The notes: a model not told the origin generated them from the sequence alone. A stretch of DNA of 64,000 nucleotides from Candidatus Nomurabacteria bacterium (GCA_943356445.1 CALREZ010000001.1:15818-79817); one strand, 5' to 3'; positions 30,338-58,468 are shown, counted from the stretch's first letter. Numbers and translations are program-made.

Positions 30338-30364
30338 TTCGATTCCCCTTTGTTTCAAAAAACA

Positions 30365-32362: not shown

Positions 32363-33430
32363 TTAGTCTTTTGTAAGGTTTAATACTTTTGTTATTGTTT
32401 CAGCGAAATTCTCAGGGAGAAACTTTTTGTATTTTTCGCTTTGAAGGAAGCGTTCTATCGCACAGAGATACTCGTTGTATCTTTCTTCCGTAACGGAAAA
32501 GAGATAATCGGCCAGTTCCTTTTCGTTTTTGAATTTTCTTCGGTCTATAAAAACATCCTCGTCAATATAATCGGCAACATTCGGCGCTCCAAGATATATT
32601 GGCACTGTTTTTGCCGCAAGGGCATCAAAAATCTTTTCAGTGATATAGCCGTTTTGTTCCGTGTTCTCGTAGCACAAAGCAAATTTGTATTGAGAAAGCG
32701 TATTAATCTTATTTGGAACCTCGCCTTGAAATTTTTTGTATTTTTTGACCAGCCAAGGAATTCTTTTTTGCCACTTTGTTATCGGTTGGTTCCAGTATAT
32801 GCCAAACAAATCGAAATGTTCGGGGTAATTGGCATCAAAATACGTTATGGTATTTCTCCTGGCCGTATATAGTTCCAGCGGAAGAGAAGATGTTTTATTT
32901 GTTATGATGTTTACTAAAAATTTTCTCTCAGAAAACGTTCGGTTATTTCGTATTGGTTTTGATGTTGCGGAAGGATGATGAACCTTAAAAAATTTTTTGT
33001 TGTCAATAATGTCGTCATCCCAAGTTAAAATACGGTTGAAATGTTTCCATAGAGCCGGGTCGTAGTTGCGCGGGCAAATGACTTTTCCTTCCATGATTAA
33101 AAAAACAAGTTTATCGGACATGGATAATTTTTCCGCTTCTGTGACAAGCTCTCTTTTCGGCCATATTTGCGGGAGTTTTAATCCGAGGATTTTTTTTAAT
33201 CGCCATTTCCACGATTTTTTGTGCTCGTTGGAAACGCTTTCGGCGTTAAGAAAAAGGATCCACCCGCACCCTTCCACGGAATTGCTGTCTGCGGTCGTAA
33301 ATTCATACCCGAGGAACTGAAGTTTATCGCGAAGCATGCGCCATGTTTCGGTGACGTTATTTATATCCGGGCCGAACATCCTGTTATTGCCGAGGGGGCG
33401 GCTTGGAACCTGAAGAAGTATTTTTTTCAT
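32363..33430 (-). CDS. alpha-1,3-fucosyltransferase (GT10)
   Basis: QYKFALCYENTEQNGYITEKIFDALAAKTVPIYLGAPN matches the GT10 FucT motif (YKFxLxFENS ... GYxTEK). Start set at MKKILL, overlapping the upstream stop by 4 bp. Confidence 0.7.
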   Translation of the reverse strand: MKKILLQVPSRPLGNNRMFGPDINNVTETWRMLRDKLQFLGYEFTTADSNSVEGCGWILFLNAESVSNEHKKSWKWRLKKILGLKLPQIWPKRELVTEAEKLSMSDKLVFLIMEGKVICPRNYDPALWKHFNRILTWDDDIIDNKKFFKVHHPSATSKPIRNNRTFSERKFLVNIITNKTSSLPLELYTARRNTITYFDANYPEHFDLFGIYWNQPITKWQKRIPWLVKKYKKFQGEVPNKINTLSQYKFALCYENTEQNGYITEKIFDALAAKTVPIYLGAPNVADYIDEDVFIDRRKFKNEKELADYLFSVTEERYNEYLCAIERFLQSEKYKKFLPENFAETITKVLNLTKD

Positions 33431-35603: not shown

Positions 35604-36422
35604 TTATATTATATCCGCAAAGTATCGCTCTGTTTTTTTAAACATGACGATACCGATAGCAAGGAGAACAGAAGTCGCCACGAAAGAAATGAATATAAGA
35701 AGGCCGTTTATTTTTGCTGTGCCCAAAAGAGCCGCACGCGCATTCTGGATCACTCCGGTCATTGGATTTATAGCAAGTATCCATGAGTATTTTCCGGCGA
35801 TACTGGCCGGGTAAATGACAGGGGTCAAGAACATTAACATTTGAATAAAATAAGGAAGAATATAACGGACGTCGCGATATTTTACATTGATTGCGGCAAG
35901 GAAAAGCCCCAGACCGACGGCTGCCATAAAACAAATGATAAGAAGGATCGGAAGGACGAGAATTCCCAACAGGTTGGGATGATATCCGTAATAGATCATC
36001 ATCCCCACGAGAATCGTCGCGGCGATGGCGAAATCAACCAATTGGGTAATAACCGAAGTGATCGGGAGAATGAGGCGAGGAAAATACACTTTGGTAATAA
36101 TGGATTGATTGGCTATCAAGCATGAGCTGGTGCTGGAAAGCGCGCTGGAAAAAAATTGCCAAAAGAGCAATCCCGTGTAAACGAAAATCGGATAGGGAAC
36201 TCCATCAGAGGGCATTTTTGCGAGTTTTCCGAAAAAGATGGTAAAGACCACCATGGTCATGAATGGTTGGAAGATCGCCCACGCCGCCCCGAGAGCGGTC
36301 TGTTTGTACCTAACCTTCAGGTCTCTCCATGTGAAAAAATAGAGCAATTCTTTGTATTGCCAAATTTCACGAAGATCATTCCATCTAAAGATTTTTTTTG
36401 GTTTGATTATCGTCGTTTGCAT
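35604..36422 (-). CDS. wzm: ABC-2 type polysaccharide exporter permease (Wzm-like)
   Basis: 272 aa, 6 TM segments, an ABC-2 family pattern, adjacent to wzt. Confidence 0.8.
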   Translation of the reverse strand: MQTTIIKPKKIFRWNDLREIWQYKELLYFFTWRDLKVRYKQTALGAAWAIFQPFMTMVVFTIFFGKLAKMPSDGVPYPIFVYTGLLFWQFFSSALSSTSSCLIANQSIITKVYFPRLILPITSVITQLVDFAIAATILVGMMIYYGYHPNLLGILVLPILLIICFMAAVGLGLFLAAINVKYRDVRYILPYFIQMLMFLTPVIYPASIAGKYSWILAINPMTGVIQNARAALLGTAKINGLLIFISFVATSVLLAIGIVMFKKTERYFADII

Positions 36423-36559: not shown

Positions 36560-36916
36560 ATGACAGTAAAAGGGGTCGGTATTGATATTGCGGAGGTCAA
36601 AAAATTTGCTTCTTTTAAGAAAAACGGGGAAGACCGATTTTTGTCTAATAATTTCACCGAAAAAGAGTTGGAATACTGTTTCTCTTTTGCGGATTCAAGT
36701 ATTCATCTCGCGGCAACTTTTGCCGCGAAGGAGGCGGTGTGGAAAGCTTTTGGGAGGGCCGATATGCTTCAGTCAGCGATTGAGGTCAGGCGGAATGGCT
36801 CAGGGTATCCGACAGTGTGGATAAAAAACCGGCCGCAAAAATCTATTTTACTTTCTATAAGTCACACAACGGAAACAGCCGTCGCCGTCGCAATTATGAC
36901 GAATAGAAAAAAATAA
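36560..36916 (+). CDS. acpS: holo-[acyl-carrier-protein] synthase (4'-phosphopantetheinyl transferase)
   Basis: 118 aa. GVGIDIAEV ... FAAKEAVWKAF are AcpS motifs. Confidence 0.85.
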   Translation: MTVKGVGIDIAEVKKFASFKKNGEDRFLSNNFTEKELEYCFSFADSSIHLAATFAAKEAVWKAFGRADMLQSAIEVRRNGSGYPTVWIKNRPQKSILLSISHTTETAVAVAIMTNRKK

Positions 36917-37000
36917 AAATAGAAAAATTACAAAAATATAACCGCTTTGGCAATCTTTCCATTTTTCTGTTTTCTTATTTTTTATATTATTATTTTATTT

Positions 37001-38044
37001 ATGAATACAAAAAAATGCATTGTGCTTGATTTGGATAATACTCTCTGGGGAGGGATTGTCGGGGAAGATGGATTTGATGGAATACAGCTTTCTTTATCTC
37101 ATCCGGGTTCAAGTTTTATTGCTTTTCAACAAGCTCTTTTGGATCTCTATAATCGTGGAATTATTCTGGCGGTAAATAGCCGAAATAATTTTGAAGACGC
37201 GATGAAGGTAATCCGTACTCATCCGAATATGATCCTGAAAGAACTTCACTTTGCGGCGATGCGCATCAACTGGAACGATAAGGCCGCGAATATCGTTGAA
37301 CTGGCAAAAGAACTCAATATCGGACTGGACTCCATGGTGTTTTTTGATGATGACCCGACTAATCGTGCGACCGTTCGAGCCATGGTCCCCTCTGTGGAAG
37401 TTCCCGAACTTCCCGCAAGTCCTGAAGAATACGCAAAATTCCTTCTTTCCCTCCCATATTTTCCGAGCGCGGCGATAACGGATGAAGATAAAATGCGCGG
37501 GAGTCTGTATGTAACGGAACGGTTGCGTCAAGAAGCGGAAAAGTCATTCCCGAGCAAAGAAGAGTTTTTAAAAAATCTCGGATTGGAACTTCATATTCTG
37601 GAAGATGATCCGACCTCTATTGCTCGCCTTGCTCAGATGACAGGAAAAACCAATCAGTTCAATGTAAACAAAATCCCCATGACGGAAGAAGAAATGACAG
37701 GCTTTATGGAACATCCCGAATACAAAGTATTTCACGGGCATGTTGCCGATCGTTTCGGTGAACATGGCATTACGAACTTGGCGATTGTGAAAAAAAATGG
37801 CGAGAATTGGAACATAGAACATTTCCTTATGAGTTGTCGGGTAATCGGTCGGGGAATAGAAGATGCTTTTTTGACGGCCATTGCTGGTGTCGCGAAAAAA
37901 GAGGGAGTGAAGCGTCTCGCGGTTACTTTTATCCCTACGGAAAAAAACGCGCCGGCTCAAGAATTTATCAATCGGCGTTTTATCAATAACGAAACAATGG
38001 TGGAAGATACTCCTTCCTCTCCGGAGTGGATTACGATCAAATAA
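37001..38044 (+). CDS. HAD-IIIC family phosphatase, FkbH-like
   Basis: CIVLDLDNTLWGG is HAD motif I DxDxT with the FkbH-like LWGG. The size and C-terminal region fit the FkbH-like domain. Start at ATG 37001. Confidence 0.75.
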   Translation: MNTKKCIVLDLDNTLWGGIVGEDGFDGIQLSLSHPGSSFIAFQQALLDLYNRGIILAVNSRNNFEDAMKVIRTHPNMILKELHFAAMRINWNDKAANIVELAKELNIGLDSMVFFDDDPTNRATVRAMVPSVEVPELPASPEEYAKFLLSLPYFPSAAITDEDKMRGSLYVTERLRQEAEKSFPSKEEFLKNLGLELHILEDDPTSIARLAQMTGKTNQFNVNKIPMTEEEMTGFMEHPEYKVFHGHVADRFGEHGITNLAIVKKNGENWNIEHFLMSCRVIGRGIEDAFLTAIAGVAKKEGVKRLAVTFIPTEKNAPAQEFINRRFINNETMVEDTPSSPEWITIK

Positions 38045-38045
38045 T

Positions 38046-38276
38046 ATGGAAAAATTTAATGAAATGGCGGGCGAAGCTTTTAAAATGTCGCCATCTGAAG
38101 TAAAAGATTCTTTGACTCCGAAAGATATACCTGAGTGGGATTCCATGAACTTTCTTCTGTTTATTGCCGCTTTGGAGAAGGAATTTAATTTCTCATTCAG
38201 TATGGACGAAGTGCTAAACGCAAAATCGCTTGGCGATATAAAAGCGGTATTGAAGGGTAAAGGGTTGATTGCATGA
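38046..38276 (+). CDS. acyl carrier protein
   Basis: 76 aa. WDSMNFLLFIAALEKEF carries the DSL/M phosphopantetheine-attachment serine context. Confidence 0.7.
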   Translation: MEKFNEMAGEAFKMSPSEVKDSLTPKDIPEWDSMNFLLFIAALEKEFNFSFSMDEVLNAKSLGDIKAVLKGKGLIA

Positions 38277-38692
38277 TTGCGAAAGATTTAAAATTTGAGG
38301 ATATTAAAAAGGGGGATTCTTCTTCTTTTGAAGTAACGATAACAGAAAGCGACATACAAAAATTCGCTGAACTTTCCGGTGATTATAATCCGCTTCATGT
38401 TGATGAAGAATATGCAAATGAAACGGAATTTGTCGGGAGGGTCGTTCACGGAATGTTTCTCGGATCATTGGTTTCTCGTTTTGTCGGAATGGAACTGCCC
38501 GGGAAAAAAGCTCTCTTGTTGAAAGAAACGCTTGAGTTTAAAAAACCGGCAAGAATCGGCGACCGTATTATTGTGAAGGGGGCTGTCGTCTATAAAAGCG
38601 AACCGCTTCGCCTTATAGAACTTTTAATGGAAATACGCACGGAAAAAGAATTGCTCGTTTCCGGTTCCGTGTATGCAGGGGTTTTACTATAA
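38273..38692 (+). CDS. MaoC-like (R)-specific dehydratase, hot-dog fold
   Basis: 139 aa. DYNPLHVDEEYA ... GRVVHGM is the MaoC dehydratase motif. Confidence 0.75.
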   Translation: MIAKDLKFEDIKKGDSSSFEVTITESDIQKFAELSGDYNPLHVDEEYANETEFVGRVVHGMFLGSLVSRFVGMELPGKKALLLKETLEFKKPARIGDRIIVKGAVVYKSEPLRLIELLMEIRTEKELLVSGSVYAGVLL

Positions 38693-38699: not shown

Positions 38700-39458
38700 A
38701 TGAATGCCACTCAAAAGATTGCGGTAATATCCGGTGCAACGGGATACATCGGATACGAAACAGCAAAAAAACTTGCGGCTGACGGCATGCGTATAGCGAT
38801 GCTTTACTATGGTTTATCAAAGGAGGATGCTATTCGTATGGTTTCTGAACTTTCAGGAGAAGGACATAATGCTTATTTTTGCGATATTTCGGATGAAAAC
38901 GCCGTTACTCAGGTTATTGATAGGATAGAACAAGAAATGGGCCATTTATATGCGTGTATTCACGCCGCCGGAACGCTGCCGAAGCCAAAACAACTTCACC
39001 TTTCTTCCCCTGCTGATTTGGATGAACAGTTTAAGGTGAATATATTTGGGACTTTTAATTTTTTGTCGTCTTGCGCAAGGCGCCTCAAAGAACACAAAGA
39101 CGGGGTGATTATTGGAATTACCACCGCAGGTGTCGTTACTCCAATCAACACAAAAGCTCGCGGAGCTTACAGCGTGCTGAAGTTCGCTCTTCAAGGGATG
39201 CTCGTTGCGCTCAAAGAAGAACTTTCTTCTTTTGGCATCCGAGTATATTCTATTGCTCCGGGCGTATTACCTGGAGGGCTGAATCGCGATACCCCGAAAG
39301 CATTTCTTGAAATAACGAGAAGTACGAGCCCGACAAAAACGCTTGCTGCGGCAGAAGATGTGGCAGAAAAAATATCTTCTCTTTGTTTGGAAACGGCGAA
39401 TGGAATATCAGAGTTCACATTTTTAATCGCGCCGGAGACCGGTATAATGCCGAAATAG
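38700..39458 (+). CDS. SDR family oxidoreductase
   Basis: 252 aa. ISGATGYIGYETAKKLA Rossmann motif, YSVLKFAL (YxxxK) and NAAG-like IHAAG. Confidence 0.8.
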   Translation: MNATQKIAVISGATGYIGYETAKKLAADGMRIAMLYYGLSKEDAIRMVSELSGEGHNAYFCDISDENAVTQVIDRIEQEMGHLYACIHAAGTLPKPKQLHLSSPADLDEQFKVNIFGTFNFLSSCARRLKEHKDGVIIGITTAGVVTPINTKARGAYSVLKFALQGMLVALKEELSSFGIRVYSIAPGVLPGGLNRDTPKAFLEITRSTSPTKTLAAAEDVAEKISSLCLETANGISEFTFLIAPETGIMPK

Positions 39459-39461: not shown

Positions 39462-40178
39462 ATGGATAGCAAAAGAAAAACAATAATCATTTCCGGCGGA
39501 GGCGGATATTTAGGAAACGCTCTTGTCCGAACGTTTACGAAAAACGGTTTTAATATCATTGTCCTTGAAAGAGAAATAAAAGGATTGTCTGGTACGGAAA
39601 ATCTGCACTTTAAACTCGCTGATGTTTCCAATTTTTATGATGTAAAGAAAGCGGCTGACGAAGTAAAAAAAGAATTTGGAGGGATTTTTGCCATAATCCA
39701 CGCCGCATCGGCTCCCCTTGTCCGCCAGCCGGCGCTTTCTGTTTCTGAAAAAGATTTTGAAAAACAGTTTGCGGTAAATGTTCTTGGGGGTTTTTATCTT
39801 TTTAAGTATTTTAGCGAGATGCTTTCTCCAGACGGTGCCATCATCGGGATAACGACTTCGGCAATCTTTCATGGTACTGCTCATGCAAAAAGCGGTTCAT
39901 ATGTAGCCGCAAAATCGGGGTTGTGGGGATTGCTCCGTTCTATCTCTTTTGAGACTTCATTTCGCGTTTATTCCGTTGCCCCGGCCTTTATGCCGGATGG
40001 GTTGAACAAAGATCTTCCGCTCGCAATAAGAGAATTCATTGTTAAAAAAATCGGCACCAAAAATGTTACGGATGCCGGAGAAGTTTCTCTTACTGCTCTT
40101 TCCCTTGTGAACGACAAAGAGAGAAGGTGGAGCGGAAAGACTATTGCTCTGCCGGGATTTTTGGTAACTGAATTCTAA
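39462..40178 (+). CDS. SDR family oxidoreductase
   Basis: 238 aa. ISGGGGYLGNALVR and YVAAKSGL (YxxxK). Confidence 0.75.
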   Translation: MDSKRKTIIISGGGGYLGNALVRTFTKNGFNIIVLEREIKGLSGTENLHFKLADVSNFYDVKKAADEVKKEFGGIFAIIHAASAPLVRQPALSVSEKDFEKQFAVNVLGGFYLFKYFSEMLSPDGAIIGITTSAIFHGTAHAKSGSYVAAKSGLWGLLRSISFETSFRVYSVAPAFMPDGLNKDLPLAIREFIVKKIGTKNVTDAGEVSLTALSLVNDKERRWSGKTIALPGFLVTEF

Positions 40179-40181: not shown

Positions 40182-41642
40182 ATGCTTTTTAATTCATTTT
40201 CATATTTGATATTTTTCCCTCTGGTCTTTGCTGCATTCTTTTCTGTCCCCAAACGTTTCCAGACCAGCGTTCTTCTCCTCTCAAGCTGTGTTTTCTACAT
40301 GGCCTTCGTTCCGAAATATATCCTCATTCTTTTCTTCCTCATCACCGTTGATTTTTTTGCCGCTCAGGCCATTGAAAAAAGAGAAGGCATTGAACGGAAA
40401 AGATTTCTCCAGCTTTCCATTTTTGCGAATATCGGCACGCTTTTTGTTTTTAAATACTTCAATTTTTTCAACATAAATATCGCCTCCCTCGCCGGTTTTC
40501 TGCACTGGAACTATTCTCCGTTTCTTTTGACCATCATTCTGCCTCTCGGTCTCTCTTTTCATGTCTTTCAAAGCTTGAGCTATGTCATAGAAGTATACCG
40601 GAAAAAATATGCCCCGGAGAAAAATTATTTGACCTATGCTCTCTATGTCATGTTTTTCCCTCAGTTGGTTGCCGGGCCGATAGAACGGCCTCAGAATCTT
40701 TTGCCTCAATTCCATGTTTTTCATGATTTTGATCCGGTAAACGCAAGAAAGGGGTTGGAAAGGATGCTGTGGGGATTTTTTAAGAAACTGGTTATTGCGG
40801 ATCAGCTGGCTCTTGTTGTGAATGCGATGTTTGCGCATCTTCCTTCCGACGGGGTGGCTCTTCTCATCATGATGTTTTTTTTCTCCTATCAGATCTATTG
40901 TGATTTTTCAGGTTACTCTGATATCGCCATCGGCTCCGCTCTCGTGCTCGGATATGACCTTTCCGAGAACTTCAACCGCCCCTACGCTTCGCGTTCCATT
41001 GCCGAGTTTTGGAGGAGATGGCACATGTCGTTGTCCGGATGGCTTCGCGACTATTTGTATATTCCTCTTGGTGGAAATCGGGTTTCAACAAAGCTTCGCT
41101 GGTATTTTAATATCATGACGACATTCGTTCTTATCGGTCTTTGGCACGGAGCGAACTGGACGTTCGTGGCTTTTGGGGCTTTGCATGGAGTTTATCGTGT
41201 TGTTGGAGAGATAACGAAACAAACAAGAGAGAAGATATGGAAGATTCTCGGGACTCCAAGAAAAATCCAATCCGTGGCGCAAACACTTATTACTTTTTTT
41301 CTCGTTCTTATCGGTTGGATATTTTTCCGCGCTCAAAACATTTCTCAAGCAGGGCAGATCTTCTCGGGTATTGCTGTTGGAATCGGTAATTTCTTTGATA
41401 TGAATTACTTACGGTTTAAGCTTGGAAGGGGTCTTGGAATCGGAGGAACACAGCACGTATTTGCTTATGCCATGGTAATAGTGATGGAGATCGTTCAGTA
41501 TTTTCAGACACGGAAAAACACTTTCTATATTTTTGACAGCCAGCCGAGAGTTATCAGATACGGATGGTATTATCTGATCGCTCTGATTATCTTGTTTTCG
41601 GGGTATTTTGGGGAAACTGCCTTTATCTATTTTCAATTCTAA
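40182..41642 (+). CDS. MBOAT family O-acyltransferase (DltB/AlgI-like)
   Basis: 486 aa polytopic protein. N-terminal MLFNSFSYLIFFP and the conserved MBOAT His region RRWHMSLSGWLRDYLYIPLGGNR. Confidence 0.85.
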   Translation: MLFNSFSYLIFFPLVFAAFFSVPKRFQTSVLLLSSCVFYMAFVPKYILILFFLITVDFFAAQAIEKREGIERKRFLQLSIFANIGTLFVFKYFNFFNINIASLAGFLHWNYSPFLLTIILPLGLSFHVFQSLSYVIEVYRKKYAPEKNYLTYALYVMFFPQLVAGPIERPQNLLPQFHVFHDFDPVNARKGLERMLWGFFKKLVIADQLALVVNAMFAHLPSDGVALLIMMFFFSYQIYCDFSGYSDIAIGSALVLGYDLSENFNRPYASRSIAEFWRRWHMSLSGWLRDYLYIPLGGNRVSTKLRWYFNIMTTFVLIGLWHGANWTFVAFGALHGVYRVVGEITKQTREKIWKILGTPRKIQSVAQTLITFFLVLIGWIFFRAQNISQAGQIFSGIAVGIGNFFDMNYLRFKLGRGLGIGGTQHVFAYAMVIVMEIVQYFQTRKNTFYIFDSQPRVIRYGWYYLIALIILFSGYFGETAFIYFQF

Positions 41643-41644
41643 AC

Positions 41645-42775
41645 ATGTCGCATTTCTTAAAAAAATTCTTTCTTTTTTTAGCTCCGTTTGGCTTAATATT
41701 TATTTTGCCGATTACCGTATTTCTGCTAAGCCGAGAATATTATACGATAGACCGCGCTCTTCTCGTGGAGAAAGAACATCCGAACGCGGTGATAGGGCTT
41801 GCTTATAGCAATATATCCGGGCTTAAGAATGCGCTTGTCGCAAAGAACAATCCGACCGTGTTTGCGCTCGGGACTTCCCGTACGGGACAATTCAGAAAAG
41901 AATTTTTTACGGCATCGTCCACATTTGTTACGGCAAGCAATTCCGTGGTGAGCATTGACGGGATGAAAAAATTTATTGAGGAACTTCCCGACGACAATAA
42001 AACTGAAATTGTTATACTCGGTTTGGATCCGAATATGTTTTTGCCGTCATACCTTCATGAGTATCCGTCCGAAACAGATTATGAAAGGTTGAAAGATTTG
42101 TTCTTGGGAAGGTGGAGGAATTTTTATATCGCTTACTTTTCAGGAAGATTTTCCATCAAAGAATTGTGGATTCGCTCGGGGCAGACGGAAAGCATCGGGT
42201 TAACCGGCATTATGAGGGAAGAAGGGTTTCGTCCCGATGGCAGCTATCAATACCGGAAAAAACTTTCAGAACCGAATCGCGAGGAACTTTTGAAATCAGA
42301 TATGGATACTTCCATTTCTTTACTCAGAGCGAACAGGAGCAATCCATATTATAATCAATACAGCGACCCTTTCTCAAAAGACGTGATTTTGTCTCTTGAT
42401 GAGCTTTTAACGCTTTGCCAAAAGAAGCATCTCTATGTGGTCGCATATATTCCTCCTTTTCCACCGCTTGTGTATCAGGAACTCATTCGTTTGCCTGACG
42501 GACAAAAAGAAAATGTATTGCAGCTGCCAGCGGCCCTCAGAGAAACTCTTTCCCGACACGATTTTGACTTTTACGATTTTTCCGACAGTACTATTCTCGG
42601 AAAACACGATAACGAATTTATAGATCCGTCGCATGGAACCGATAAGTATTACCTGCGGATGATTTTATATATGGCTGAAAGAAATAAGAGGTTGTCGGAG
42701 TATGTTGATATTCCGAAAGATAACAAACTGTTGCAAAACGCGAACAAAGATTATTTGGATGATGTTCTTAAATAA
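41645..42775 (+). CDS. putative MBOAT partner protein (DltD/AlgJ-like, N-terminal membrane anchor)
   Basis: Start at ATG 41645 (MSHFLKK) after the MBOAT stop. Single N-terminal TM, FALGTSRTGQ and DPSHGTD SGNH-like blocks. Assignment rests on context. Confidence 0.45.
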   Translation: MSHFLKKFFLFLAPFGLIFILPITVFLLSREYYTIDRALLVEKEHPNAVIGLAYSNISGLKNALVAKNNPTVFALGTSRTGQFRKEFFTASSTFVTASNSVVSIDGMKKFIEELPDDNKTEIVILGLDPNMFLPSYLHEYPSETDYERLKDLFLGRWRNFYIAYFSGRFSIKELWIRSGQTESIGLTGIMREEGFRPDGSYQYRKKLSEPNREELLKSDMDTSISLLRANRSNPYYNQYSDPFSKDVILSLDELLTLCQKKHLYVVAYIPPFPPLVYQELIRLPDGQKENVLQLPAALRETLSRHDFDFYDFSDSTILGKHDNEFIDPSHGTDKYYLRMILYMAERNKRLSEYVDIPKDNKLLQNANKDYLDDVLK

Positions 42776-42789
42776 TAGGGAATAAAATT

Positions 42790-43725
42790 TTATTCAGCCC
42801 GACTTTCTTTGAACCAGGCGTATGACATTTTTATTCCTTTTTCCAGAGGAACTTTATGCTTCCAGCCAAGAGTATGAAGTTTTGAAACGTCTAACCATTT
42901 TCGGGGTGTGCCGTCGGGCTTGCTTTTATCCCAGACGAGTTTTCCGGCGAAGCCGACAGTCTTTTTCGCGAGTTCGGCGAGTTCTTTAATGGAGCAATCT
43001 TCACCTGTGCCGATGTTTATTGTTTCCGAACCGTCATATTTGTTCATCAGAAAGATACAGGCATTGGCAAGATCATCAATGTACAAAAACTCGCGTTTTG
43101 GTTTTCCGCTTCCCCACATAATGACTTCCTTTGCTTGATTCTTTTTTGCTTCGTGAAGTTTGCGCAGCATCGCAGGAAGGACGTGGGAATTTTCAAGGTC
43201 AAAATTATCATTCGGACCGTAGAGGTTTGTGGGCATGACGGAAATGAAATTCGTTCCGTATTGTTTGTTGTAGGATTCGCACATTATCATGCCGGCAATT
43301 TTTGAAATGGCGTATGCTTTATTGGTTGGTTCAAGATAACCGCTTAAAAGATATTCTTCTTTTATCGGTTGCGGGCAGTTTCTCGGATAAATGCAGGAAC
43401 TGCCGAGGAAGAGAAGCTTTTTTACTTTAGAGAGATACGCATTGTGAATAACATTGTTTTGAATCTGAAGATTTGAATAGGCAAAATCCGCCGGATAGGT
43501 TTTGTTGGCAATAATTCCTCCGACTTTGGCGGCGGCGAGGAAAACATACTCCGGTTTTTCTTGAGCGAAGAACTTCTCAACCGCTTTTTGGTCAAGCAAA
43601 TCCAGTTCTTTTCTTGTTTTTAAAACAAGGTTGTTATATCCCTTTTTTTGCAGAGCTCTGACGATTGAGCTTCCGACGAGTCCTTTGTGTCCGGCGACGT
43701 AGATCTTTGAATCTTTTTTCATCAT
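42790..43725 (-). CDS. fcl: GDP-L-fucose synthase
   Basis: 311 aa. [19 protein letters not shown] and YAISKIAG (YxxxK) match the Fcl/WcaG family. Confidence 0.9.
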
Positions 43726-43751
43726 AGAGATTTATGGTGCTTTGCTGTTAT

Positions 43752-44798
43752 TTATTCTGCGGTTTTTTCGGCTTCGTAATCGCTTTCGGCCATGAGTTTG
43801 GCGAGTTTTTTGAAAGTGGTTGAAGGTTTCCATCCGAGAGCTTTTTTGGCTTTGGCATAATCTCCCAAAAGGACATCCACTTCCGCGGGGCGGAAATAGG
43901 CGGGATCAATTTCAATCAGCACTTTTTTTGTTTTTTTATCAATGCCTTTTTCTTTGAGACCTTTTCCTTGCCAGACGATTTCAAAGTCAAAAGTTTTTGC
44001 CGCTTCTTCCGCGAATTCTCTTATGGAGTGTGTTTCTCCCGTAGCAAGGACAAAGTCATCCGGCGTCTTATGCTGGAGCATACGCCACATTCCTTCCACA
44101 TAATCTCTGGCATACCCCCAATCTCTTTTTGCGTCTAAATTTCCCAAGAAAAGTTTGTCTTGTTTCCCGAGTTTTATCCGCGCCAATCCCTGCGTTATTT
44201 TTCTCGTAACGAATGTTTCTCCTCGGCGGGGCGATTCATGATTAAAAAGAATTCCATTGGATGCGAACATCCCGTAACTTTCGCGGTAGTTTTTGGTAAT
44301 CCAATAGGCGTAGACTTTGGCGCAGCCGTAAGGAGAGCGCGGGTGGAAGTGTGAAGTTTCTCGGAGGGGGAGTTCTTCGGCCTTTCCGAACATCTCACTG
44401 GAAGAGGCTTGGTAGAATCTTGTTTTTGCTCCGAATTTTCGTATGGCATCAAGGAGGCGAAGCGTTCCCGTGCCGGTTACATCCGTGGTGTATTCGGGTG
44501 TGTCAAAACTGGCTCGTACGTGGCTTTGAGCGCCGAGATTGTAGAGCTCGTCAGGCTGCGTCTTTTCTATGAGTCGATTGATGTTGCTGGCATCGGAAAG
44601 ATCTCCGAAATGCAAAAAAAGCGCCCGATCCTCTTTCTGCGGATCCTGATACAGATGATCAAGACGGTGCGTATTGATAGTGCTTGCTCGGCGGATAATG
44701 CCGTGAACTTCATATCCTTTTTCCAGAAGCAATTCTGCCAAGTAGGATCCGTCTTGTCCGGTGATTCCGGTGATGAGCGCTTTTTTAGGTGTTTTCAT
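43752..44798 (-). CDS. gmd: GDP-mannose 4,6-dehydratase
   Basis: 348 aa. [34 protein letters not shown] is the classic Gmd N-terminus. Confidence 0.9.
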
Positions 44799-44939
44799 TT
44801 TTTTATGATCTGAAATTCCATTCTGACATTTTTTTATTTGTTTGAAAACATTGACACGGTGAGATTAATCGGTCTTTGTAACCGGACGTTGTTTTTATCT
44901 GTTGCAATAGGAGTCCATTAAAAGTATTATACGATACCT

Positions 44940-46319
44940 ATGAACTCTGTTATTTTATGCGGCGGATCGGGAACAAGGCTCTGGCCCCTTTCGCGAAAAA
45001 ATTATCCGAAGCAGTTTTTAAATCTCTATAGCGACAAATCTCTTTTGCAGGAGACGTTTTTACGCATGCGCCGGATCATGCCGGATGAAAATATCTTTTT
45101 CGTTACGAACAAAGATAATTATTACAACGTGTTCAACCAGATAAAAGAAATTTTTCCGACATTCAGCGAAGATAATATCATTCTGGAACCGACGGCGCGC
45201 AACACGCTTCCGGCCGTCGCTTTGGCGGTGAAATACTTGAGGGAAAAGAAAAAAATACCGGCAACCGAGCCGATACTTTTTGCTCCCGCCGATCATTGCA
45301 TTCTTGACGGCGAAGCATTCGCCAAAGTGGTAAAGAAAATGGGCAAGGATGTCGGTGATCATATCGGCACTATCGGCATTGTTCCCCTTAAACCGGAAAC
45401 GGGCTACGGCTATATCCAAAAAGGAAAAAAACACGGCAGTTTTTTTGACGTTGTTTCTTTTAAGGAAAAACCGAACAAGACGACAGCGGAAGAATATCTT
45501 GCTTCGGGCGAGTATCTTTGGAACTCGGGCCTGTATATGTTTAATGCCAAAACTTTTGTTTCTGCCCTTAAAAAACATGTTCCCGAAACGGCGAAGGCGT
45601 ATGAAGAAAAATGGGAAAGATTTATAGAACATTTTTCCGAACTCCAAAAAATTTCCATAGACAATGGCATCTCCGAAAAATCGGACAAGATAATTCTTTT
45701 TGAGGGGGATTTCGGGTGGAGCGATATCGGTTCTTTTGACAGCCTTGCGGAAGCGTCGGAGAAAAACAAAAAACATTCTTCGCGCCACGCGAGCGTTGAT
45801 TCCAAAAACATATTCGTTCATACGACGAGCAACCGGCTTATCGCGACCCTCGGCGTTGAGGACTTGGTTATCATTGAAAACAACGACAGTATTCTTATCC
45901 ATAAAAGGGGAAGAAGCGAGGACGTGAAAAAAATGCTCGCGCATTTGGAAGAGAAAAAATATCCCGAGGTAGAGCACAACATTCTGGTTCACCGACCGTG
46001 GGGAAAATATGAGGTGCTGATAGACAATCCTTTGTATAAAGTGAAAAAAATCACCGTGTATCCGGGAGCGAAACTCTCTTATCAATCACATGAACACCGT
46101 TCCGAACACTGGGTTGTCGTGGAGGGCGTAGCGACCGCGACGGTGGGAAACGAAGAAATTCCGCTTCATAAAAATCAGAGCACGTTTATTCCGGCTCAGA
46201 CAAAACATCGTTTGGCGAATTTCGGGAAAATAAATTTGAAGATTATTGAGGTTCAAACGGGGACGTACTTCGGAGAGGATGATATCAAACGGTACGACGA
46301 CATCTATAAACGAATCTAA
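44940..46319 (+). CDS. manC: mannose-1-phosphate guanylyltransferase / mannose-6-phosphate isomerase (type II PMI)
   Basis: 459 aa. N-terminal ILCGGSGTRLWPLSR nucleotidyltransferase and a C-terminal cupin with a QSHEHRSEHWVVVEG motif. Confidence 0.9.
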   Translation: MNSVILCGGSGTRLWPLSRKNYPKQFLNLYSDKSLLQETFLRMRRIMPDENIFFVTNKDNYYNVFNQIKEIFPTFSEDNIILEPTARNTLPAVALAVKYLREKKKIPATEPILFAPADHCILDGEAFAKVVKKMGKDVGDHIGTIGIVPLKPETGYGYIQKGKKHGSFFDVVSFKEKPNKTTAEEYLASGEYLWNSGLYMFNAKTFVSALKKHVPETAKAYEEKWERFIEHFSELQKISIDNGISEKSDKIILFEGDFGWSDIGSFDSLAEASEKNKKHSSRHASVDSKNIFVHTTSNRLIATLGVEDLVIIENNDSILIHKRGRSEDVKKMLAHLEEKKYPEVEHNILVHRPWGKYEVLIDNPLYKVKKITVYPGAKLSYQSHEHRSEHWVVVEGVATATVGNEEIPLHKNQSTFIPAQTKHRLANFGKINLKIIEVQTGTYFGEDDIKRYDDIYKRI

Positions 46320-46387
46320 AACGTTTTTTCAATCGGCTTTACTTATGATATATTTGAAAGGGAAGGCGGACAGCCTTTCCTTTTTTC

Positions 46388-47884
46388 ATGCTTTTCAATT
46401 CGTTTTCTTTTCTCATCTTCTTTCCGGTTGTTACCGCCGGATATTTTCTTGCTCCGCACAAATATCGCTGGGCGTTTCTTCTTGCGGCGAGTTGTGTTTT
46501 TTACATGGCTTTTATTCCGTACTATATACTGATACTTTTTACCGCCATCGGAATTGACTATTATGCGGGCATAAAAATTGAAGATACGGAAGACGTGAAA
46601 AAGAGAAAAACGTATTTGATTTTAAGCGTGGTCAGCACTTCGCTTCTGCTTATCCTTTTCAAGTACTTTAATTTTTTCAATGCCAATTTTAAAGAAATAG
46701 CGAGTTTTCTGCATTGGAATTATTCCATTGGTTTTTTGAGTATCGCTTTGCCGATAGGGCTTTCTTTTCATACGTTTCAAAGTTTGAGTTATGTTATTGA
46801 GGTATATCGTCGGAAGCAGAAAGCCGAACGACACCTCGGCATTTATTCGCTCTATGTCATGTTCTATCCGCAATTGGTTGCGGGGCCGATTGAACGTCCT
46901 CAGAATTTGCTTCACCAATTCCGCGAAAGGCATGAATTTGATTACCTGAGATTAAGAGCGGGGCTTCAACGGATGCTGTGGGGATTTTTCAAAAAAGCGG
47001 TAATCGCGGATAATCTCGCCATGTACGTCGGTCTTGTTTTTGGAAACCCGCATCATTATTCCGGAGCTCCTCTTTTGCTTGCTTCGGTATTTTTCGCTTT
47101 TCAGATATATTGCGATTTCTCCGGCTATTCCGATATCGCTCTCGGTTCGGCGAAGGTTATGGGTTTTGATCTCATGGAAAATTTTAAAGTCCCGTATGGC
47201 GCAACGACCGTAACGGAATTTTGGAGAAGATGGCATATCTCGCTTTCTTCGTGGATACGCGATTATATTTTCTTCCCGCTTTCCATGGGATGGAGGAAAA
47301 TGGGGAAGCTCGGCATCGTGTGCGCCACGTTGGTTACGTTTGCTTTTGCCGGACTGTGGCATGGGGCGAGCTGGCTGTTTGTTTTCTTTGGTTTGCTTCA
47401 TGGATTCGTTCTTTCTCTTGAACTTCTTACTTCTCGGTGGAGAAATAAAATATCGTCATTTTTTCCGGACATATGTTCAAATATATTTGGCAGGCTCTAC
47501 GTCTTTTCTTTTTGGACAGCCTCGCTTGTTTTTTTTCGGGCGGGAACCTTTGCTGATGCGCTCTATATAGTATCTCGTTTTCCTTCGGGGATTTCCGAGT
47601 TTGGCCGAACCGTGGGGACGGCTCTTTTTCAGATGAGCGTTGCTCCTTTCCGAATGCTTTTTTCCACACTCCAACTGTACTATGGAAATTTGAGGTTCTC
47701 TTTTCTTTTGGGATTGGTGCTGGTCGTTATTGTTTCTGAAATACTGGAGTATAAAATAGGACTTTTTGTTTTACTCAACAAAATCCCCAAGATTTTCAGA
47801 TGGATATGGTATGTTGTTTTGGTTCTCTCCATAATGAATCTGGGGGTAACTACCGAAGTGCTGTTTATTTATTTTCAATTCTAA
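46388..47884 (+). CDS. MBOAT family O-acyltransferase (paralog of 40182..41642)
   Basis: 498 aa. About 55-60% identical to the other MBOAT by eye (MLFNSFSFLIFFP ... RRWHISLSSWIRDYIFFPL ... IYFQF). Confidence 0.85.
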   Translation: MLFNSFSFLIFFPVVTAGYFLAPHKYRWAFLLAASCVFYMAFIPYYILILFTAIGIDYYAGIKIEDTEDVKKRKTYLILSVVSTSLLLILFKYFNFFNANFKEIASFLHWNYSIGFLSIALPIGLSFHTFQSLSYVIEVYRRKQKAERHLGIYSLYVMFYPQLVAGPIERPQNLLHQFRERHEFDYLRLRAGLQRMLWGFFKKAVIADNLAMYVGLVFGNPHHYSGAPLLLASVFFAFQIYCDFSGYSDIALGSAKVMGFDLMENFKVPYGATTVTEFWRRWHISLSSWIRDYIFFPLSMGWRKMGKLGIVCATLVTFAFAGLWHGASWLFVFFGLLHGFVLSLELLTSRWRNKISSFFPDICSNIFGRLYVFSFWTASLVFFRAGTFADALYIVSRFPSGISEFGRTVGTALFQMSVAPFRMLFSTLQLYYGNLRFSFLLGLVLVVIVSEILEYKIGLFVLLNKIPKIFRWIWYVVLVLSIMNLGVTTEVLFIYFQF

Positions 47885-47885
47885 T

Positions 47886-48824
47886 ATGAAAATTTTTTGG
47901 AGCTGGACAGTATTTTTCATCATCATTTTTCTTTCGCAGATCGCGATCTCTCATTTTATTACCGAACCGTGGGGAGCGAGAACCCTTTCTGAAACCCTTG
48001 ATAAAGGATATGACGTCTTGTACTTCGGAGACAGTACGGTTGACGCTTCGGCCGATACGGATACTGACAAAGCTCCGATCACCGAAATGCTCAGACGTTT
48101 AAAACCGGAGCTTTCCATCGCCGACCTTTCCCGCAGTTCCAATCATCTGGGTCTCTATGAAGCCATGGTTGGGCAGATCGCAAAATCCGGAAAAAAGCCC
48201 GTCATAATCATACCCATCAATATGAGAAGCTTTTCCCCGTGGTACGACAAGCGGCCGGAATTTCAGTTTGAAAAGGAGATATTTTATCTGACGGCGCCGT
48301 CTCCTCTTATTGCTTGTTTTTACAAACCGCTTGCCGTATTTCGCGCGATAAATGTTAACGCCGTAACTTTTTCCGAGTTTTATCAGACGCCGGTTTATCG
48401 GGGAAAAAAGCAGATTGGCATTGTCGCAGATTTTAATGACACGGTTCTCGCGACAACAACGCCGGAAAATATCAAAACGAGTTTTATGCTCGGGTATATG
48501 TTTGATCTTGATGCAAAGCATCGAAAGCTTGATTCGTTGCGAAACATTATTGACCAAGCTGACCGATCGGGTATAAAAATATATTTTTATATTACCCCGA
48601 TAAATCACGAGCAGGGAGAAAAATTTTACGGAAAAGAATTCAAAGAACAAATGGAGAAGAATACCGATACCGTTTGCGCCATTCTCAAAGAGAAAAAACA
48701 TTCTTGCTTGAATCTCGCTTTTTCCGTTGATCCGAGCTATTTCCAGTCACCCGTTCTCCCGAGCGAACATCTCAATGAAAAGGGAAGAATGTTTGTGGCT
48801 GAAGAGGTTGCCAAAATGCTTTAG
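47886..48824 (+). CDS. putative MBOAT partner protein, SGNH-like
   Basis: 312 aa. N-terminal TM, VLYFGDSTVD (block I GDS) and a PSEHLNEKG region; directly follows the MBOAT gene. Confidence 0.45.
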   Translation: MKIFWSWTVFFIIIFLSQIAISHFITEPWGARTLSETLDKGYDVLYFGDSTVDASADTDTDKAPITEMLRRLKPELSIADLSRSSNHLGLYEAMVGQIAKSGKKPVIIIPINMRSFSPWYDKRPEFQFEKEIFYLTAPSPLIACFYKPLAVFRAINVNAVTFSEFYQTPVYRGKKQIGIVADFNDTVLATTTPENIKTSFMLGYMFDLDAKHRKLDSLRNIIDQADRSGIKIYFYITPINHEQGEKFYGKEFKEQMEKNTDTVCAILKEKKHSCLNLAFSVDPSYFQSPVLPSEHLNEKGRMFVAEEVAKML

Positions 48825-48880: not shown

Positions 48881-51154
48881 ATGAAAACAACAGAAAATTT
48901 TTTACGCAACGCGATTCTTACGGGAATCTTTGCGGTGCCGTTTTTGGCATTCCTTGTTACCGGCTCAATGTTTTTTCCTTTTATTACCGGGAAAAACTTT
49001 GGATTTAGAATTATCACCGAGGTGATATTCGCTTTGTGGATATTGCTCGCGTACGCGAATGTCTCGTATCGTCCGAAATTTTCATGGATTATGGCGACGG
49101 CCGCATCTTTTGTCGGAATCGTTTTTCTCGCGGATATTTTTGGCGCCAATCCCGCAAGAAGCATTTGGTCCAATTATGAACGAATGGAAGGCTTTGCGGC
49201 GCTCATCCACGTTTTTGCTTTTTTTGTCGTTGCCGGTTCCGTTTTGACCAGAGACCTTTGGACGAAATTTTTACAGACATCGGTTTTTGCCGCGACCATT
49301 ATGGCTCTCTACGGATGGATGCAGTATGCCGGAGGGGCGGCAATCAATCAGGGCGGCGGACGTCTCGACGGGCGTTTTGGCAATGCGGCCTATCTTGGAG
49401 GATATCTGCTTTTTAACGCTTTTCTGACCGCTTTTCTTATGACGCGAACCAAGAAATATAATTTCCTGTGGTGGATTTACGCGTGCGCCATCATTCTTCA
49501 GGTGATCATCATGTTCCTTACGGAAACTCGCGGTTCCATGCTCGGATTTTTTGTCGGCGTTACGCTTTCGTCCCTCATTTTTATTTTCTTGAGCAAAAAG
49601 AATCCGCTCCTGAAAAAAATTGCCATCGGGGTTGTCGGGTTCGTTGCCGTCTTTATCTTTTCGGTATTTCAATTCAAAGATTCAAGTTTTGTACAGAGTC
49701 ATTCCACCCTCTCTCGTTTTGCCACGATTTCTCTTTCCGGGTCAACGGTGGATTCTCGCTTCATGGTTTGGGGTATGGCGATAGACGGATTTAAAGAACG
49801 CCCGATCCTCGGCTGGGGACAGGATAACTTCAATGTGGTGTTCAATAAGTATTACAATCCCGGCATGTGGAATCAGGAGCAGTGGTTTGATCGCGCTCAC
49901 GACATCTTCTTGGATTGGCTGATTTCTGCCGGATTCTTGGGACTCTTCGCGTATCTTCTCCTTTTTGTTTTAGGCGTGTTGTTTGTTTGGGAGACGGGAA
50001 CAAAGTTCGGAGAAAAAGGTTTGTTGAAAAACATTTCGTTTGCTTGGAAAAAATATGTTTCCGGAGAAGAAGAGCATCATCTTCTTGAAAAGAGCATCTT
50101 GACCGGATTGTTTGCGGCTTACTTCGTCCATAACATTTTCGTCTTTGATAATTTGTTCAGTTATATTCTTTTCTTTTCCGTTCTCGCTTTTCTCCATTCT
50201 TCTCATGTAGAGGAACCGGTGATGGCGAAAAATTTTACAAAGAAATTTGTACCGGGAAATGACGTTCTTCCTTTGTCGTATATCGCCGGCCCGGTCTTGT
50301 TTGTTTTTGTCATTGTCATGTATATCGTCAACATCAAACCGATACTGGCGAGTCAGGCGATTATTGCCGGAATCCAGCCACATCAGGATGCTTCCGGAAA
50401 AGTGACTTTTACGAAAGAAAATTTTGACAGCTTCAAACAGGTTATTGCGTATGATACGTTCGGCAATTCCGAGGCAAGAGAACAGATCGTGCAGGCGGCC
50501 GTTCGGAACGCTTCGCCGGGCGTAGATAAGGATATGCAGAAGCAACTTTTTGAACTCGCCAAAGAACAGATTCTGGAGCAGATACGGGATGTCCCCGAAG
50601 ATGCTCGCATTGAAACTTTTGCCGGAACGCTTTTCTTGAGATACGGACAGCAGGATGAAGCGCTCGCTCATTTTGAAAGAGCTCATGAGCTTTCTCCGAA
50701 TAAACAGACGATTAGTCTGAGTCTTATTCTCTGTTATTTGAATGCCGGACGAGCCGATGACGCGATGGCTTTGGCGAAAGCGACCTATGAACTTGATACT
50801 GACTTTAAAGAGGCGGCAAAGATGTACGCGGTAACGGTCCTCTACAAAGGAGACCAAAAACTTGCCGATGATATTCTTATCAAAAACTTTGGGACAGCGG
50901 CGATATATGATGAAGACCTTATTACCACCTACGCTTTTATGAAGAAGTACGACAAAGTCCTCGAGATCCTCAATCAAAAACTTAAAGAGAAAGAAGACTC
51001 TCAGGTTCGCATTCGTCTCGCCGCTACATATCTTGAAATGGGCGATAACGCCGCGTCTATCGCCGAGATAGAAAAAGTGATGGCGGAAGACCCGAGCTTT
51101 AAACAGCAGGGAGAGTACTTTATTCAGGAAATTCGCGCCGGGAGGAAGCCGTAA
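48881..51154 (+). CDS. O-antigen ligase/polymerase-like (Wzy_C) membrane protein with C-terminal TPR repeats
   Basis: 757 aa with about 12 TM segments, including the LTETRGSMLGFFVG motif of the O-antigen ligase family. The C-terminal ~250 aa have TPR-like repeats (AHFERAHELSPNKQ ...). Confidence 0.7.
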   Translation: MKTTENFLRNAILTGIFAVPFLAFLVTGSMFFPFITGKNFGFRIITEVIFALWILLAYANVSYRPKFSWIMATAASFVGIVFLADIFGANPARSIWSNYERMEGFAALIHVFAFFVVAGSVLTRDLWTKFLQTSVFAATIMALYGWMQYAGGAAINQGGGRLDGRFGNAAYLGGYLLFNAFLTAFLMTRTKKYNFLWWIYACAIILQVIIMFLTETRGSMLGFFVGVTLSSLIFIFLSKKNPLLKKIAIGVVGFVAVFIFSVFQFKDSSFVQSHSTLSRFATISLSGSTVDSRFMVWGMAIDGFKERPILGWGQDNFNVVFNKYYNPGMWNQEQWFDRAHDIFLDWLISAGFLGLFAYLLLFVLGVLFVWETGTKFGEKGLLKNISFAWKKYVSGEEEHHLLEKSILTGLFAAYFVHNIFVFDNLFSYILFFSVLAFLHSSHVEEPVMAKNFTKKFVPGNDVLPLSYIAGPVLFVFVIVMYIVNIKPILASQAIIAGIQPHQDASGKVTFTKENFDSFKQVIAYDTFGNSEAREQIVQAAVRNASPGVDKDMQKQLFELAKEQILEQIRDVPEDARIETFAGTLFLRYGQQDEALAHFERAHELSPNKQTISLSLILCYLNAGRADDAMALAKATYELDTDFKEAAKMYAVTVLYKGDQKLADDILIKNFGTAAIYDEDLITTYAFMKKYDKVLEILNQKLKEKEDSQVRIRLAATYLEMGDNAASIAEIEKVMAEDPSFKQQGEYFIQEIRAGRKP

Positions 51155-51358: not shown

Positions 51359-51566
51359 AGAGGTTACGCTCATTGAAAAAGCGCCTTTATTTTGAAAGGC
51401 CACATACAAGTACAAATGCAACACAAATCGCAATTGATAAAAGTATCAGTTGCGCGTGCTAATAGAATTTTGCAAGAATTCGTTAGACGTAATTACGAGA
51501 ACAAAAGACCAAATAGCACAGCGATGCAAATTGGATTTTCTTTTGTTTCACTCTTGTCTTTTTTTT

Positions 51567-53050
<1,484 letters not shown>

Positions 53051-53362
53051 TTCATTTTATTGCGATCATCTTGTTTTCTTCGGAAAACAAAGATTGATTC
53101 GAAATGGCGATTGCTCAACCTAGTTGAGTAAGGCAATGGTTTTCTTGCCTTTAAATAAAAACCCCTTCAGCTTCTTTTGGTTAAAGAAGCAAACCCATAA
53201 AGAAAGAGTGAAACAAAAGAAAGTTAAATTTGCTTTCTGACTCTCGTATTTTGTGAAGCATTGCAAAATTAACCCGCATGATCTGCGGTTTTTTTTGTGC
53301 ATATGCAAAAGGTATCTCCTCACGCTATTTAAAAAATGGCTTGACTGTGTATTTTTTTTGTC

Positions 53363-58418: not shown

Positions 58419-58468
58419 CAAACGACGGTAGCGTTAAAGTCTCTTTTATTTTGTCACTCTCTCGTAAT

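Follow-up and report, generated by a model that had tools for sequence, protein, structure and literature searches.

A carrier protein-linked and a stand-alone MBOAT-SGNH pair in one glycan locus of a Candidatus Nomurabacteria bacterium

Background

Pairs that combine a membrane-bound O-acyltransferase (MBOAT) with an SGNH-fold partner are the main bacterial route for acylating envelope polymers, a modification with effects on biofilms, on the evasion of immunity and on resistance to lysozyme and antibiotics. Bacillus anthracis has two such pairs, PatA1/PatB1 and PatA2/PatB2, acting on cell-wall polysaccharide; both are acetyltransferases with DHHW-type partners, and they provide a precedent for two MBOATs on one wall polymer. 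Here we analyze two pairs of this kind found in a stretch of 64,000 nucleotides of a Candidatus Nomurabacteria genome (GCA_943356445.1, CALREZ010000001.1:15818-79817), hereafter called the window: pair 1, i.e. MBOAT1 and partner 1, and pair 2, i.e. MBOAT2 and partner 2. The DNA comes from a metagenome contig of ~116 kb (ENA ERZ27280322).

In PatA/PatB, PatA auto-acetylates the invariant Tyr of a C-terminal FXYXXF hexapeptide, from which PatB takes the acetyl group; in the Dlt system this motif is carried by a microprotein, DltX (PMC12148441). The current view is that a carrier protein is used in the Dlt pathway only, and acyl-CoA in all other pairs (PMC12148441). An MBOAT-SGNH arrangement with its own carrier-protein donor pathway was found described only for teichoic-acid D-alanylation. 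In the window, pair 1 closes an operon that encodes a dedicated acyl carrier protein (ACP) and enzymes for loading it, and no donor-synthesis genes accompany pair 2. We consider it probable that these are two independent systems which acylate, outside the cytoplasm, a glycan exported by Wzm/Wzt, pair 1 drawing on acyl-ACP and pair 2 on acetyl-CoA. A duplicated MBOAT-partner pair is by itself ordinary; the interest lies in pair 1.

The two MBOATs and their ancestry

The two MBOATs, called paralogous in the initial annotation of this DNA, show 47% identity in a full-length alignment (BLASTP, E 6e-146), and the identical stretches pointed out there, LSYVIEVYR, PQLVAGPIERPQNLL and the C-terminal IYFQF, are present in both, the first as part of QSLSYVIEVYR and the last as part of FIYFQF. 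Neither is a pseudogene, as had been stated: both open reading frames (ORFs) are intact. The His of GLWHGA(N/S)W aligns in both proteins with the WHG His of DltB. For comparison, 30 MBOAT sequences were collected from related loci (designated L and a number). All 30 end in F[ILF]YF[QKR]F, His322 and Tyr483 are invariant, and all invariant residues are common to MBOAT1 and MBOAT2. By its correspondence to the published FXYXXF shuttle, the IYFQF ending flagged in the initial annotation is the feature that characterises such enzymes functionally.

The ancestry of the pairs was analyzed with a neighbour-joining tree built from these 30 sequences (200 bootstraps). MBOAT1 clusters with its counterparts in L004, L011, L030 and L091 (clade A, 92% bootstrap), and all five genes follow an AcpS-FkbH-ACP-MaoC-SDR module (SDR: short-chain reductase). 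MBOAT2 groups with the MBOAT of L008 (100%), a locus that has a partner of the partner 2 family and no ACP module; the module is likewise absent within 8-10 kb of all the closest relatives of MBOAT2 (L008, L009, L013 and L014). Linkage to FkbH, ACP and MaoC is seen as well in clade B, a distant one with 100% support, whose member in L058 has a DUF1574/DltD-like neighbour. The two MBOATs of the window were sisters in 0 of 200 replicates. A recent duplication is excluded by this result together with the 47% identity and the different families of the partners. That the window holds two distinct systems rather than redundant copies, as first proposed, is supported by the tree, in which its MBOATs are never sisters and fall into separate groups at 92% and 100%. 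Judged by their sequences, the pairs are two cassettes of different ancestry.

An exploratory comparison within the same set concerned residue 318 (His -4; window ~41133-41135), which is I, L or M in 11 of 13 MBOATs linked to an ACP module and S, A or G in 17 of 17 unlinked ones. The linked state spans three separate clades; DltB has Met at this position and MBOAT2 has the unlinked state. Residues 62 and 299 split linked from unlinked MBOATs in much the same way, also in an exploratory comparison. The three positions are possible markers of donor specificity, to be taken as a lead and not as a test.

The ACP module and its recurrence

The operon that ends in pair 1 comprises eight genes on the plus strand: AcpS, FkbH, ACP, MaoC, SDR1, SDR2, MBOAT1 and partner 1 (Table 1). 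From FkbH through partner 1 the genes overlap or are separated by at most ~7 nt, the start of MaoC overlapping the stop codon of ACP. The AcpS-FkbH gap measures ~30-85 nt according to the start chosen for FkbH, which is probably the ATG at 37001 (347 aa). FkbH exceeds its curated cutoff and carries the HAD DxDxT motif (DLDNT) and the conserved Cys (MSCRV), both invariant in 4 orthologues. FkbH enzymes charge an ACP with a glycerate-derived unit taken from 1,3-bisphosphoglycerate, and the same is predicted here. The PDB match of MaoC, 5cpg, is an (R)-specific enoyl-CoA hydratase. Of the two SDRs, the SDR1 type is the only one present in L011, L030 and L091, and the SDR2 type the only one in L004. 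In a sister assembly (ERZ27280321; L003, 2691-3448) the operon is the same except that SDR1 is broken into two ORFs (135 and 117 aa), through either an assembly error or a strain-level inactivation of one of the two SDRs.

The initial annotation noted that pair 1 only is coupled to an ACP module. This proved correct for the window, where the ACP lies in the pair-1 operon only, and the coupling recurs elsewhere: a module precedes an MBOAT-partner pair in five unrelated loci (L004, L011, L027, L030 and L091). L011 is a Paceibacterota metagenome-assembled genome (MAG); in L027, a Lachnospiraceae MAG, the gene row reads FkbH_N-FkbH, MaoC, SDR, ACP, MBOAT, partner of the partner 1 family, the ACP being directly before the MBOAT. 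Such recurrent coupling, restricted to pair 1 in the window, makes a different donor for pair 2 plausible, and the earlier idea of two modifications with different donors is reasonable and finds support in synteny and phylogeny.

The association was also examined from the side of FkbH. A metagenome scan gave at least 579 FkbH relatives, from which 80 loci were retained, and the 49 of these with a length of at least 8 kb were counted. An MBOAT was present nearby in 8 of the 14 loci with MaoC, versus 1 of the 35 without (Fisher p=5e-5). Plasmid matches in Methylosinus and Pseudalkalibacillus (clusters of polyketide synthase (PKS)/tetronate type) and in Paroceanicella (an ACP-FkbH-methyltransferase cluster) contain no MBOAT and were set aside.

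A shorter arrangement was observed on pSymB of Sinorhizobium meliloti (L113; CP140955.1, 1048481-1053516): an MBOAT with PPFLYQGF at its C-terminus, then a protein of 410 aa, an ACP and FkbH_N-FkbH. The 410-aa protein, annotated as 'TonB-dependent receptor', has an N-terminal transmembrane segment and GGST...DPGH motifs; an SGNH assignment was not confirmed by hhalign or Pfam and is a reading of the motifs. The cluster is situated ~4 kb upstream of rkpR/S/T, the genes for capsule export, and the FkbH homologue is found in ~40 Sinorhizobium plasmid records. It is a reduced version of the arrangement, and could provide a culturable model of the putative carrier-fed system.

The partner proteins

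Each MBOAT is directly followed by a membrane-anchored SGNH-like ORF, as the initial annotation had recognized: the partner genes begin 1-2 nt after the MBOAT genes, each protein has one hydrophobic segment, an N-terminal anchor, and the models are DltD-like. A start of partner 1 at 41564 was replaced by the ATG at 41645, 2 nt past the MBOAT1 stop. The partners had been described as quite different from each other. This holds in that BLASTP detects no similarity between them (best E 0.44) and that they belong to separate subfamilies, hereafter P1 and P2; it does not hold as unrelatedness, the two families being remote homologues by hhalign of their profiles (92.3% probability, E 5.5e-7).

Searches of Pfam, NCBIfam and PDB gave no useful match for the partners, whether as single sequences or as family profiles, and the DltD family of Pfam in particular gave no significant one. 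Structure prediction, the comparison suggested at the outset, was more informative: the AlphaFold models (pLDDT 87 and 91) both match DltD best and then other SGNH enzymes. Ser and His are kept in both families, P1 having the canonical Asp and P2 a Glu beside the His.

Weak family-level matches were recorded among the relatives. DUF1574 (PF07611), a member of the SGNH clan that was first recognized in Leptospira, matches 10 of 49 sampled P1 relatives weakly (best E 1.8e-7); partner 1 itself has no match at E<=1 and does not reach the gathering threshold. Lipase_GDSL_2 weakly matches 13 of 43 P2 relatives. As far as such profiles tell, both partners are DltD/DUF1574-like, and P1 is related to DUF1574 but outside its model. 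DUF1574 is listed, with 97 members, among the SGNH families without known function (PMC9487903). P1 is far larger: a full HMMER scan at E<=1e-3 gave 3204 clusters at 50% identity. The earlier impression from a word-indexed search that partner 1 is near-unique (5-9 matches) was an artefact of the index.

The search for related P1 loci was seeded with a 9-sequence alignment. A P1 gene lies directly downstream of an MBOAT gene in nearly all of 18 loci (those with upstream DNA), and these span Paceibacterota, Saccharibacteria, Bacteroidota, Planctomycetota, Acidobacteriota, Verrucomicrobiota, Nitrospirota and Lachnospiraceae. P2 genes occupy the same position in L008 and L009. A P2-type partner, 41% identical to partner 2, is also found in L030, behind an MBOAT linked to the ACP module, so that the type of partner is not tied to the type of donor. 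Going by this gene order, the partner families are interchangeable behind ACP-linked MBOATs, and the partners probably set acceptor or position specificity rather than donor specificity. The whole L030 cluster (7648-12967) reads AcpS-FkbH-ACP-MaoC-SDR-MBOAT, P2-type partner, carbamoyltransferase and two more GDSL-like genes.

Comparison with known systems

Both pairs present the features of PatA/PatB-type systems: an MBOAT domain with the catalytic His, a C-terminal FXYXXF with the invariant Tyr (here FIYFQF), and an adjacent extracytoplasmic partner of SGNH fold with catalytic Ser and His (and Asp). A polytopic MBOAT with its His, a fused FXYXXF Tyr and an adjacent extracytoplasmic SGNH partner are common to PatA/PatB, AlgI/J/F/X, WssH/I and PatA1/B1, and by all criteria of sequence and structure the pairs of the window are members of this general fused-shuttle class. 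They differ from its described members in two respects. PatA/PatB-type systems use acetyl-CoA and no carrier protein, whereas pair 1 sits in an ACP-loading operon; and the partners are not members of PatB (DUF459), AlgX/AlgJ or DHHW by sequence, their closest fold being DltD. With neither an AlgX/AlgJ-type partner (PF16822) nor AlgF found, the pairs are not an alginate AlgI/AlgJ/AlgF/AlgX system. Unlike the B. anthracis pairs, they have partners of two DltD/DUF1574-like subfamilies, and one of them is linked to a carrier protein.

There are likenesses to Dlt as well. DltB is the best NCBIfam and PDB match of both MBOATs, the anchored SGNH partners have DltD as their top structural match but no significant match to its Pfam family, a small ACP of its own, with DSM as the serine motif, is present in the pair-1 operon only, and the acyl group would probably be C3-sized. 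However, the MBOATs score 163.4 and 141.4 bits against the DltB equivalog TIGR04091, below the cutoff of 375. Instead of residing in a DltX microprotein, the shuttle motif forms part of the MBOAT itself, on additional C-terminal helices; a six-frame scan of the 64 kb found no DltX-like micro-ORF, the two MBOATs being the only products to end in F.Y..F. An FkbH HAD-type loader, MaoC and SDR stand in place of the adenylating enzyme DltA, no AMP-binding/adenylation domain being present in the operon or among the called genes of the window, and the genes belong to a Wzm/Wzt glycan locus rather than to a teichoic-acid system. The systems of the window are therefore not a Dlt system.

The module itself resembles the FkbH loading modules of PKS, such as those for methoxymalonyl-ACP in FK520 and for the lactyl starter in FR901464, where FkbH and ACP are followed by a dehydratase and a ketoreductase. 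It differs from them in that the window module has no ketosynthase or PKS, in that the dehydratase is a stand-alone MaoC hotdog enzyme, and in that its product would go to an MBOAT.

The surrounding glycan locus

Positions ~1-51 kb of the window form one large glycan locus. Encoded there are numerous glycosyltransferases of GT2 and GT4, fucosyltransferases of GT10 and GT11, methyltransferases, NeuB together with a CMP-sugar synthetase, a heptose-type pathway, the Wzm/Wzt ABC exporter and a Wzy_C+TPR protein. Table 1 lists the features discussed here.

Table 1. Features of the two pairs and of their surroundings, in window coordinates
Feature	Position	Strand	Evidence or remark
AcpS-type 4'-phosphopantetheinyl transferase	36560..36916	+	Pfam ACPS 2.8e-12; TIGR00556 67 bits, cutoff 45; first gene of the operon
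FkbH-family HAD-IIIC loader	36947..38044	+	TIGR01686 296 bits, cutoff 146.65; PDB 3slr HAD domain E 2.4e-40
Acyl carrier protein, dedicated, 76 aa	38046..38276	+	WDSM serine motif; weak NCBIfam ACP; PP-binding; PDB 2lml E 6e-4
MaoC/PhaJ-type (R)-specific hydratase/dehydratase	38273..38692	+	MaoC_dehydratas 9.2e-21; PDB 5cpg 3e-20
SDR1, FabG-like ketoreductase	38700..39458	+	adh_short_C2 8.6e-33
SDR2, second short-chain reductase	39462..40178	+	adh_short_C2 5.3e-22; 33% identical to SDR1
MBOAT1, 486 aa	40182..41642	+	His322 in GLWHGANW; C-terminal FIYFQF (Tyr483); PF03062 87.6 bits
Partner 1, 376 aa	41645..42775	+	N-terminal membrane anchor, DltD-like SGNH domain; Ser78 (GTSR), Asp327, His330 (DxxH) family-invariant
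MBOAT2, 498 aa	46388..47884	+	catalytic His in GLWHGASW; C-terminal FIYFQF; PF03062 93.9 bits
Partner 2, 312 aa	47886..48824	+	N-terminal anchor, DltD-like SGNH domain; G48-D49-S50, N112, E294 invariant; H295 near-invariant
fcl, GDP-L-fucose synthase	42790..43725	-	NF047922 493.4 bits, below cutoff 500
gmd, GDP-mannose 4,6-dehydratase	43752..44798	-	TIGR01472 554.9 bits, cutoff 415
manC, mannose-1-phosphate guanylyltransferase / mannose-6-phosphate isomerase	44940..46319	+	TIGR01479 451 bits, cutoff 373
Weak promoter-like site	46326-46354		just 5' of the hairpin
Hairpin, 11-bp stem and T-run	46356-46385	+	within the 68-nt manC-MBOAT2 gap
Wzy_C (O-antigen-ligase-like) membrane protein	48881..51154	+	C-terminal TPR repeats; Pfam Wzy_C 7.3e-21, TPR_19 9.3e-12
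wzt	34316-35599	-	Pfam ABC_tran, Wzt_C; glycan ABC exporter
wzm	35604-36422	-	Pfam ABC2_membrane; glycan ABC exporter; divergent from the pair-1 operon
GT11 fucosyltransferase, alpha-1,2-type	21364-22170	-
GT10 fucosyltransferase, alpha-1,3/4-type	32363-33430	-
NeuB, nonulosonic-acid synthase	29282-30358	-
Third SGNH-like ORF, 290 aa	33427-34299	-	weak Lipase_GDSL_2 and SGNH(AT3) matches
140-aa gene	~9479-9901	+	23S_rRNA_IVP / bAvd (four-helix-bundle) Pfam matches
16S rRNA gene, complete	51560-53056	+
tRNA-Ile(GAT)	58347-58419	+

According to the initial annotation the pairs bracket a GDP-fucose operon. manC, gmd and fcl do lie between the pairs, but they are not a single operon: the minus-strand genes gmd and fcl converge with pair 1, and manC is a plus-strand gene located upstream of pair 2. 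A hairpin and a weak promoter-like site are present in front of MBOAT2; over the region as a whole, a scan for promoters and terminators returned counts at chance level. MBOAT2, partner 2 and the Wzy_C/TPR gene, which is the downstream neighbour of pair 2, may constitute a transcription unit of their own.

The GT10, GT11 and NeuB content suggests that this bacterium, one of the candidate phyla radiation (CPR), has a glycan which is multiply fucosylated and resembles Lewis antigens or sialic acid. Between the GT10 gene and wzt lies a third SGNH-like ORF, with CVGDSHV at its extreme N-terminus, DGAHLS near residue 200, and no signal peptide or anchor at the N-terminus; it may act on acyl groups in the cytoplasm, as an esterase or a transferase belonging to the pathway of this glycan. 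Among the glycosyltransferase genes is also a short gene with bAvd matches; bAvd-type proteins go with diversity-generating retroelements. The 16S rRNA gene stands beside the glycan locus, with the tRNA-Ile gene 5.3 kb downstream past protein-coding genes. No 23S or 5S gene is present in the 64 kb window, so that the 16S gene is unlinked. Proteins in the 90%-identity clusters of three window proteins bear the name Candidatus Parcubacteria, on which ground a Leptospira origin, considered from GC content, the unlinked 16S gene and DUF1574, was rejected.

Proposed route and alternatives

Starting from the gene content, motifs, folds, synteny and phylogeny observed here, we propose a route in which each chemical step, the acyl group and the acceptor are deduced. 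By homology to PatA/PatB and DltB/DltX/DltD, the MBOAT of either pair would accept an activated acyl on its cytoplasmic side, and its conserved His would hand this acyl over to the Tyr in the C-terminal FIYFQF of the same protein, at the outer face. The DltD-like SGNH partner would then take it onto its catalytic Ser and transfer it to a sugar hydroxyl. The context argues for acyl-ACP as the donor of pair 1 and for acyl-CoA as that of pair 2. In the case of pair 1, FkbH would use 1,3-bisphosphoglycerate to charge the ACP of the operon with a glyceryl unit, and the MaoC dehydratase and SDR would lead from glyceryl-ACP through pyruvoyl-ACP to lactyl-ACP; alternatively, the glyceryl unit could be transferred unchanged. 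A glycerate-derived C3 acyl is a possibility that we put forward with reserve, by analogy, and lactyl, an isostere of the D-alanyl group of the Dlt system, would be its most economical form. PMC7901079, citing Zhang et al. 2011, tabulates lactate-ACP as what an FkbH-type loading module makes from 1,3-bisphosphoglycerate. Pair 2 has no donor genes and belongs to a lineage of stand-alone two-gene cassettes, which makes acetyl-CoA the default and most likely donor. As for the acceptor, the best reading is that both pairs act on the fucose-containing, ABC-exported glycan; fucose as the acceptor residue would be pure speculation.

More generally, and tentatively, pair 1 may represent a widespread undescribed class, in which a C3 hydroxy-acyl (lactyl or glyceryl), loaded by FkbH and tailored by MaoC and SDR, would pass from the ACP to a fused-shuttle MBOAT, then to a DltD-like transferase and on to a surface glycan. 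This would be the hydroxy-acid counterpart of teichoic-acid D-alanylation, found in CPR, Bacteroidota and Firmicutes and in reduced form on S. meliloti pSymB.

Several points weigh against this interpretation. The characterised MBOATs with a fused shuttle motif all use acetyl-CoA, and non-Dlt MBOAT/SGNH pathways are stated to lack a carrier protein (PMC12148441). Members of the putative class are known from genes and predicted structures, and the choice between lactyl, glyceryl and another acyl is made by analogy. The pair-1 operon has two SDRs where the other modules have one, and P2 lacks the canonical Asp of DxxH, with NEH or SEH instead. The MBOAT sample is biased, its ACP-linked loci coming mostly from an FkbH-seeded search. 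Finally, 6 of the 14 MaoC-positive FkbH loci have no MBOAT in the available DNA, and most FkbH-ACP pairs have none near them, so that the module also serves other acceptors.

Some of these points are what would be expected if both pairs were plain O-acetyltransferases using acetyl-CoA and the ACP module, merely adjoining MBOAT1, served another acylation such as that, in the cytoplasm, of a sugar or a lipid anchor. The precedent of the characterised enzymes, the full set of invariant residues common to MBOAT1 and MBOAT2, the many FkbH-ACP loci without MBOAT and the occurrence of FkbH-ACP in PKS/tetronate-type clusters all agree with such a view. We nevertheless find it unlikely, as the order module-MBOAT-partner is kept, with translational coupling, in at least five unrelated loci, the ACP linkage is clade-specific, MaoC and MBOAT are associated in the FkbH loci, and no other acyltransferase able to use acyl-ACP is recognisable among the called genes of the 64 kb window. 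Another alternative is that both MBOATs use the same ACP-bound acyl and that the partners place it on two acceptor positions or polymers. The P2-type partner of L030 fits carrier-fed systems, and MBOAT1 and MBOAT2 fall into sister groups with a joint support of 100%; but the nearest relatives of MBOAT2 have no ACP module, and MBOAT2 itself has the unlinked state at His -4 and other positions (an exploratory result), which leaves a shared donor rather improbable.

Most enzymes of the SGNH superfamily are hydrolases (PMC12148441; PMC9487903), and the partners could accordingly be esterases that remove or edit acyl groups. Strict adjacency to a shuttle-motif MBOAT is however a hallmark of transferase systems, and the best match of both partners, DltD, is a transferase. 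This reading, like the one in which one pair is a redundant recent duplicate, contradicted by the divergence, partner families and tree already described, is in our opinion very improbable. We therefore retain the interpretation of two independent systems, with acyl-ACP for pair 1 and acetyl-CoA for pair 2.

Significance

Literature searches on FkbH in connection with MBOAT, O-antigen, polysaccharide or S. meliloti gave nothing relevant. Because of this and because non-Dlt pairs are said to work without a carrier (PMC12148441), an ACP-fed MBOAT with a fused shuttle motif appears to be undescribed within the literature searched. If pair 1 is indeed fed by the ACP, the donor repertoire of these systems would be wider than acetyl and D-alanyl, and a fused shuttle and a carrier protein would not be mutually exclusive. 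A recurrent metagenome cassette, composed of a HAD-IIIC phosphatase, ACP, MaoC, SDR, MBOAT and a hypothetical protein, would gain a function, and glyceryl or lactyl esters on polysaccharides would gain a genetic origin. It would also mean that CPR bacteria, with their reduced genomes, invest in elaborate, doubly acylated and fucosylated surface glycans.

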